Positions 19,390 to 20,142 of a stretch of 64,000 nucleotides of DNA are shown here, one piece after another. Each line of letters opens with the position of its first letter. The first letter of the stretch is position 1. Both the position numbers and the translations under genes were made by a program. This DNA is from Eledone cirrhosa (lineage: Eukaryota). The notes beneath the pieces were generated by a model. The model saw nothing but the letters and a program-made list of their open reading frames with translations, made no database searches and was not told where the DNA came from. The stretch lies in the NCBI GenBank assembly GCA_964016885.1, contig OZ024749.1:47616001-47680000 (forward strand), in the 5' to 3' direction.

Positions 19390-19458
19390 ATATATATATA
19401 TATATATATATATATATACGATATTAACAAATGGAAACTATATTTATAAAACCATATC

Positions 19459-19523
19459 TATTTTATTATACATATTTCAAGGATACCATGTTAAATTATG
19501 GTATGCTTTCATCAGACAAAATA
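19459..19523 (-). ncRNA. Hammerhead, family A' (core CUGAUGA)
   Basis: Reverse complement: tattttgt CTGATGA aag c ataccat..atggtat c ctt GAAA tatgta TA ataaaata. Confidence 0.8.
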
Positions 19524-19692
19524 CAATATATACCAGTTTTATAATTAAATGTTAACATACCCTTTCAAAATGCAACCGTTACTTTTGGAAGACATCAGGA
19601 TATTGGATTTGTTTATCTTAATAAGTCATTGTGTAACACAATGACTTTTGAAAGGGTATATTAAAATGTATTTATAAAACTGGTATATATTG

Positions 19693-19757
19693 TATTTTGT
19701 CTGATGAAATCATACCATACTTTAACATGGTATCCTTGAAATATGTATAATAAAATA
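19693..19757 (+). ncRNA. Hammerhead, family A' (core CUGAUGA)
   Basis: tattttgt CTGATGA aat c ataccat..atggtat c ctt GAAA tatgta TA ataaaata. Confidence 0.78.
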
Positions 19758-20142
19758 GATATGGTTTTATAAATATACTTTCCATTTGATAATATCGTAT
19801 ATTTACTCCAATTACTTGTCGAGTGCTTTATATCAGTTATAAAAGTGTTTGCTTGTTGTATCCCAACAATTTAAATAGAACTTTTGCATATATATATATA
19901 TACATATATATATATATATATATATATATATATATATATATATATATATATATATATATATATATATATATATATATATATATATATATATATTTAATAT
20001 ATATTTAATATATATATATTAAATTACTTTTACTCTGCTATGTATTGAGTACCTTACCTACTGTGGTTATCCGCGATTAAACCCGGGATCTACTTATATA
20101 TATATATATATATATATATTACATATATATATATATATATAT

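Follow-up and report, generated by a model that had tools for sequence, protein, structure and literature searches.

The window analysed here is a 64,000-nt stretch of the Eledone cirrhosa genome (assembly GCA_964016885.1, contig OZ024749.1, positions 47,616,001 to 47,680,000 of the forward strand), a genome of 3.0 Gb in which (TA)n tracts are abundant. It carries a short insertion, hereafter called the stub, and a long element with related arms (Table 1). The first-pass annotation described the stub as an inverted arm lacking a tail, followed by a direct arm and a tail of about 90 nt, and this layout was borne out. It also placed the start of the inverted arm at the homologous base in both elements, which is correct (19418 and 45314), and the internal TA-rich 9-mers to which it pointed were located at 19797-19805 and 49972-49980. 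We use site b for the outer boundary of the tail-less arm and site e for the end of the tail (b+90), with natural tandem copies as references.

Table 1. Features of the stub and of the long element. Positions are those of the window; ribozymes and hairpins are predictions.
Feature	Position	Strand	Remarks
A′ stub, whole	19418-19888		(TA)n on both flanks
Stub, inverted arm without tail	19418-19634	-	in minus-strand reading it extends from about b-217/-220 to site b and on into (TA)n
Stub, hammerhead of inverted arm	19459-19523	-	minimal type I, intact; C3 at 19515, predicted cut after 19467, N7 = U
Stub, inner junction	19633-19647	+	15-nt sense piece, 2 bases common with the left arm
Stub, direct arm	19646-19798	+	from b-152 to site b (19798)
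Stub, hammerhead of direct arm	19693-19757	+	C3 at 19701, predicted cut after 19749
Stub, TA-like stretch at site b	19797-19805	+	7/8 match to (TA)4
Stub, tail	19799-19888	+	90 nt, last base = site e
Stub, hairpin 1 (UACUC...GAGUG)	19804-19825	+	directly 3′ of site b
Family A long element, whole	45314-50062		layout as in the stub
Family A, inverted tail-less arm (hammerhead and UTR)	45314-46769	-	
Family A, RT and GIY-YIG ORF	46801-48436	+	5′-truncated; single frameshift near 47774-47808
Family A, hammerhead	49866-49931	+	C3 at 49874, N7 = G
Family A, tail	49974-50062	+	89 nt; site b = 49973, site e = 50062
Family A, hairpin 1 of the long copy	49979-50000	+	one stem base altered in the window copy

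The stub is a 5′-truncated head-to-head insertion of A′, a coding sister subfamily of a Hydra-clade Penelope-like element (PLE), and the long element belongs to family A. The two arms of the stub differ at 8 of 152 columns, and a substitution in the hammerhead of the direct arm disrupts the third pair of stem II. Compared with the natural copy L096, the sense piece at the inner junction is followed by a skip of about 53 nt of natural sequence via 2 shared bases. In tandem copies elsewhere the tail sequence runs on into a second hairpin and then into the ORF's beginning. We saw no sign that the stub in the window has a function of its own. The arms of the long element are 97% identical over 1,482 columns. 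A Pfam search of the two ORF pieces of this element in the window matched no family, and the motifs were read by eye.

The stub had been called a miniature; its reading as a distinct element did not hold. A distinct 470-bp non-autonomous element with a MITE-like or SINE-like master, copied as a unit, would agree with a search using the whole 471-nt stub, in which 35 of the best 40 scored of 2,738 candidates were full-length (450-485 bp). Such a sample is however biased toward the length and ends of its own query, and we discarded it as proof of fixed starts because the ends of the query are selected for. We therefore rely on a sample obtained with the hammerhead region alone, from which 30 loci were taken, one being the window itself. 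Both ends lay inside the locus in 17 of the 29 others, and these pairs measured 219-1,194 bp. Three of the 17 fell at 457-478 bp and the inner ends bunch near b-172 to -184, as a miniature would have it, but the lengths form a continuum, the centre position varies between copies, and the arms extend into the long UTR and the ORF. When six further loci of this sample were extended, three (L093, L094 and L096) were found to be long insertions that have two ends and include UTR and ORF. The left arm of the stub and L096 are 96.7% identical, and the L096 ORF, split over two frames, is 70-84% identical to that of family A. The A′-type sisters L165-L170, 85-88% identical to the stub arm, provide six intact frames of 732-745 aa. 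Because L096 and its relatives carry both arm and ORF, A′ is a coding subfamily and the stub one truncated insertion of it. MITEs are uniform in length and inner structure and have matching terminal inverted ends, whereas the centres here are variable and the ends asymmetric, and a separate miniature appears scarcely tenable. For annotation this means that the many short hammerhead-bearing palindromes of the genome are truncated insertions and do not form a MITE family.

The inner arm ends of A′ (loci L032-L057) bunch at b-172 to -184 (10/34), at b-208 to -221 (5/34, at the edge of a pyrimidine tract) and at b-123 to -127 (5/34, at an 8-nt palindrome). This bunching may come from stalling, from a transcript start or from easy pairing of two cDNAs, and the 460-bp size class may be caused by a transcription start near b-185.

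The Hydra clade is defined by a motif set, with a tendency to a size below 3 kb (Craig et al. 2021, PMC8557442, section 11), and by motif criteria the families studied here match it at the sequence level. The intact family A frame (747 aa, L074) is a single ORF with RT and C-terminal GIY-YIG domains. It contains the CxCX5C linker, CxxC and CxH and, as judged by eye, a GIY-YIG core with one cysteine and no CCHH. RWR and DKT were found in families A and J, and RWT with DKT in family C. Among the six intact A′-type ORFs, five have RWR, all have DKT and five have the linker. These features are like those given in PMC8557442 for C-terminal EN+ elements of the clade (RT with C-terminal GIY-YIG, RWK-like/DKT, CxCX5C, CxxC, CxH), as are the hammerhead in the terminal repeat and the insertion into (TA)n targets. 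The size differs, since the units measure 3,856, 4,077, 3,896 and 3,259 bp (3.3-4.1 kb) and have a long microsatellite-rich 3′ UTR, and the tail of 89-90 nt is longer than the 30-40 bp given there. The proteins of families C and J are 821 and 713 aa long, and those of A, C and J are 36-47% identical to one another. In a protein search of the genome, the best 150 scored of 71,780 first-look candidates were 97-100% identical. The 13 database homologues that matched are 31-39% identical and nearly all without a name.

A strict hammerhead descriptor matched four times in the window and in none of 30 shuffles of it. The motifs have the core bases, helices I and II and a short palindromic helix III, and are thus predicted to be minimal type I hammerheads. 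No hammerhead was among the 150 Rfam matches listed for the window, nor in 19400-19900. The PLE hammerheads described by Cervera and de la Peña (2014, PMC4209133) share the CUGANGA/GAAA/UH core and the short palindromic helix III, and the helix III palindrome resembles the dimer-type motifs of that paper. Pairs of motifs on opposite strands 100-700 bp apart are likewise described in PMC4209133 and in bioRxiv 10.64898/2026.07.22.740005. Unlike the motifs in these two sources, those studied here mostly have A-U or G-U, not G-C, as the first pair of helix II. The non-LTR retrozymes of the bioRxiv report are tandem repeats, whereas here the two motifs stand head-to-head on opposite strands, with no head-to-tail tandem-repeat retrozyme.

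Position N7 is, as first noticed, T, G or A across the window copies (19515-, 49874+/45413- and 5357-, respectively). The claim of covariation in stem II stood only in part. Covariation is present across 18 hammerheads of several families, but the segments quoted for A and A′ are not compensated: inside them a C-G pair has turned into a G-A mismatch, and the sole clean compensation between A and A′, an A-U to G-C change at the second pair, lies outside them. In the alignment of the 18 motifs (about eight subfamilies, 16 pairs), 96.5% of 288 cells are paired, as against 36-59% in slid controls, and four stem II pairs are altered on both sides. The covariation score was reached by none of 500 shuffles, which ignore relatedness. 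The hammerheads were chosen by their core pattern, so the invariance of the core is circular, and the inner stem II pairs were left out as the alignment misplaces family C there. None of 34 inner arm ends lay within 5 nt of a predicted hammerhead cut; copying thus does not stall there, in line with the uncut RNA template reported in PMC11167929 (Frangieh et al. 2024).

The fourth stem II position is an unpaired C facing C or U in 18/18 aligned hammerheads. One subfamily of A (L075, L079, L073 and L089) has an A-C mismatch at the first stem II pair (20 motifs examined) and yet some of its copies have long open frames. In family J (L121, L128 and L134) we noticed by eye, about 130 nt ahead of the ORF, a hammerhead-like fold in which CAGAAGA replaces CUGANGA.

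The mapping of arm ends took in the window and loci L032-L060, L073-L098 and L139-L158; excluded were the loci selected by shape, the short loci from the ORF search and seven duplicates. Of 213 mapped ends, 203 lay at b, at e or internal to a tandem and 10 elsewhere. In A′ there were 31 ends at b, 31 at e, one internal to a tandem and one other; the corresponding counts for family A are 22, 21, eight and one. The start points are therefore not scattered but fall at b or e, blurred by the few bases that these sites have in common with (TA)n. Two ends, in L047 and L078, lay at b-7. In contigs of the short-read run X2, which may derive from the source sample and is not independent, a natural copy gives way to (TA)n at two positions, 90 nt apart (40 and 31 contigs).

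The two kinds of end are combined in a regular way. In 59 of 61 head-to-head pairs of families A, A′, C and J, one end is at b and the other at e (binomial p 8e-16 against free choice). The two exceptions are L158 (b/b) and L091 (e/e). Four more b/e pairs and two family E pairs inspected by eye lie beyond this count, as does a family D pair read by eye as e/e (L049). The tail was on the left arm in 38 pairs and on the right in 21, and was found on the long or on the short arm.

The tail boundary had been proposed to be a fixed internal TA-like nick or priming site. A fixed site is strongly supported, but there are two such sites, b and e, and TA-likeness does not choose them. TA-like 8-mers as good as b or better occur at b-130, -115, -57, -30, +41 and +73, the one at b-57 in family A being a perfect (TA)4, and no ends were found at any of them; since these nearby matches go unused, TA-likeness alone does not select b. 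As to the alternative of nick or priming, priming fits better, given the short microhomology of both ends to (TA)n and the in vitro starts reported in PMC11167929.

In four families, both sites are accompanied by a downstream RCUC...GAGY hairpin. It is located 1-9 nt 3′ of each site, and the families concerned have 36-84% protein identity. Each unit has exactly two copies of the motif, both on the sense strand, with a spacing of 90, 92, 90 and 90 nt in A, A′, C and J. The distant families C and J were fetched to test it, and both have the same two motifs. After b it reads UACUC...GAGUG, and after e, in the ORF leader of tandem copies, UGCUC...GAGCG. The first pair of the motif is A-U or G-C and always matched in 11 of the 12 hairpins shown; in the long copy of the window an inner pair is broken. 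Three of the four core pairs are invariant and only the first varies. Shuffling gave the motif in 0-4 of 1,000 cases, a test that is partly circular since the motif was defined after seeing the data. Folding of the stem is weak in A and A′ (-2.9 to -5.5 kcal/mol, z -1.2 to -2.4), and in hairpin 1 of J and hairpin 1 of E the minimum-energy prediction did not fold the proposed stem. Inspection of the 57-nt one-sided tail of family B by eye did not reveal the RCUC...GAGY motif. In A and A′, and only there, an outer stem is predicted whose 5′ strand is the TA-rich 9-mer at b. Where A and A′ differ in this stem, a one-base indel on the opposite strand matches the change, and as a single event this is only suggestive. 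In the supplement of PMC8557442, a coral record before Hydra-1_Obim has a GCTC...GAGC stem near its 3′ end by eye; a search of that supplement with three 7-mers of the motif returned unrelated matches only, and the supplements of PMC11167929 gave no match to the motif.

From the observed end pattern we infer a mechanism in which priming by two reverse transcriptases starts from the two ends of a broken (TA)n tract, at b and at e of one RNA, and we give this reading a probability of about 0.6. The element protein would bind its RNA where the terminal repeat meets the ORF, at the two hairpins that stand 90 nt apart, and the GIY-YIG endonuclease would cut both strands of a (TA)n tract. Each freed 3′ end could then pair over a few bases with U/A-rich sequence 5′ of one of the hairpins and so prime a cDNA, one at b and the other at e. 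Both cDNAs would be antisense to this one RNA; they would sit on opposite ends of the target and stop independently. Their 3′ ends would be joined via 0-5 shared bases or short templated fillers and the gaps then filled in, and the predicted product is an inverted repeat with a single tail of fixed length. As hairpin 2 lies beyond e, a template RNA would have to span the repeat-ORF junction, as does a tandem transcript left uncut or a circle. A comparison of inverted, internal and terminal repeats, bearing on a circular versus a tandem template, showed copies that were nearly identical or had star-like differences.

The lengths of the arms speak on how the inverted copy arises. In a fold-back or self-priming scheme, a cDNA begun at e folds at its 3′ end and copies itself as far as b. 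Many short copies are indeed near-perfect palindromes with mirrored private variants and tiny loops, and in 5 of the 17 unbiased A′ pairs the arms reach equally far upstream. The scheme demands, however, a tail arm that goes no less far upstream than its copy, while it is the tail-less arm that reaches farther in ten pairs and the tail arm in only two. In three of the 17 the tail arm begins inside the tail and has nothing in common with its partner, and long insertions whose tail-less arm contains the full ORF (L079, L081 and L090) are incompatible with folding back. The arms truncate independently, and a simple fold-back is thereby excluded for most copies; as a general explanation it is very improbable, though it could still supply local fillers at junctions. 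Of 18 inner junctions, 8 have 0-5 bases in common and the others short fillers or gaps. Another scheme takes b for a DNA site which GIY-YIG nicks through its likeness to (TA)n, the tail being trimmed from one arm of an intermediate. Site b matches (TA)4 at seven of eight positions in A and A′, PMC8557442 ascribes the tail to endonuclease-mediated resolution, and PMC11167929 cites earlier work according to which the Drosophila virilis endonuclease needs tail sequence for recognition. Nicking at b does not explain why equal or better 8-mers in the same arm go unused, nor does it account for e, likewise an internal site with a hairpin of its own, or for tail arms sharing no sequence with their partner. 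The hairpin motif, moreover, has the pairing of a stem and is confined to the sense strand, and we consider nicking at b quite improbable.

Closest to double priming on one RNA is priming on two separate RNAs of one locus, at b and at e, by an asymmetric protein complex. Haplotypes were compared in 41 pairs, 30 of which come from the shape-selected set: the arms of one insertion diverge by 1.5% and different insertions by 3.45% (0/5,000 permutations). Alleles present in at least five insertions were found on both arms 53 times and on one arm eight times in a hand count, and in the arms with ORF of six insertions there were 0-4 differing sites within an insertion and 6-58 between insertions. 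One RNA or two RNAs of one locus would fit this shared haplotype alike, and in L021 the arms are of unlike haplotype over part of their length. Two RNAs of the same source locus could give rise to the shared haplotype, and so could conversion between the arms once inserted; counter to conversion, L074 retains 6, 7 and 10 private differences among its three repeats. Two RNAs would need an extra rule to force b on the one and e on the other in 59 of 61 pairs, and the fixed spacing of 90-92 nt in four families is simpler with both sites on one molecule. We therefore regard two RNAs as unlikely and prefer double priming on a single one. That it is a general rule of the Hydra clade, with a telomerase-related enzyme pair sitting on twin hairpins and copying one RNA from two primers, is a broader proposal to which we would give even odds. 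If true, it would explain the one-sided tail of fixed length, the inverted copy and the need for a tandem or circular template.

Several parts of this picture are already published: the tail with an inverted copy (PMC8557442, PMC3846280), the hammerhead (PMC4209133) and the two internal starts (PMC11167929). Craig et al. (PMC8557442) describe an inverted 5′-truncated copy and a tail at one end for PLEs generally, treat both as unexplained and call for in vitro work; their passages on the Hydra clade mention neither a twin hairpin nor a count of one end of each kind. The in vitro work on Poseidon_Ac (PAc) of Anolis carolinensis (PMC11167929) reports that the protein cuts and extends both strands, with two internal start sites that coincide with the ends of the tail and with a need for RNA 3′ of them; uncut RNA is the main template and hammerhead cleavage is not needed. 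Two internal starts bounding a tail and an AT-rich target are features in common. Poseidon_Ac, however, belongs to another clade and has its starts within the ORF, in a single AC-rich stem loop, whereas here they precede the ORF, each before its own hairpin. In the main text of PMC11167929 the two starts are not connected with the two arms of a single inverted insertion. The Penelope families of Adineta vaga that carry inverted pLTRs (Arkhipova et al. 2013, PMC3846280) have head-to-head inverted repeats, an optional tail on one of them, and palindromes and microhomology at the inverted junction, all as seen here. Self-priming was proposed for them, which as a simple fold-back the arm lengths of the present insertions contradict.

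For the twin hairpins and the one-of-each rule we found no paper in the literature covered, most subscription papers lying outside its scope. In L1 twin priming, two target ends prime two cDNAs and an inversion results. The present insertions differ from it in that both starts are fixed and the cDNAs usually overlap, which gives a duplication and not a simple inversion. Two short cis-signals at a fixed spacing, together with a counted one-of-each rule, make the unexplained PLE tails directly testable; the twin-hairpin families possess intact, near-identical ORFs, and a few point changes in the RNA suffice as a test.

Other insertions related to these were noticed in the window. A lone family A arm with tail lies on the minus strand at 5169-5439, ends at e in (TA)n and has a hammerhead with N7 = A; we saw no partner arm. 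Pieces of family C, comprising the hammerhead region and hairpin 1, are present at 51834-52119 with ends off the usual sites. A family B Penelope-like stub at 19194-19385, immediately left of the A′ stub, has an inverted arm joined nearly straight to the 57-nt tail, and family B also forms the foldback at 11333-11930, with a hammerhead-like core near 11580 on the minus strand. The interior of the foldback at 10185-11185 resembles the end of another Hydra-type GIY-YIG frame (ORF 10684-11178). Further short foldbacks adjoin (TA)n at 4456-4709, 5811-6142, 9335-9889, 20130-20280 and 59440-59736; these are probably stubs of other such families.

The window also holds repeats of other types. Broken LINE-like RT frames at 34289-37486 and 15446-16350 gave weak RVT_1 and zf-RVT matches, with an inverted partial copy 18 kb off that is 92% identical. 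A SINE-like dispersed repeat of about 190 nt is found at 62297-62490, 15231-15417 and 54153-54337 and in about twelve more copies, which are 75-96% identical to one another.
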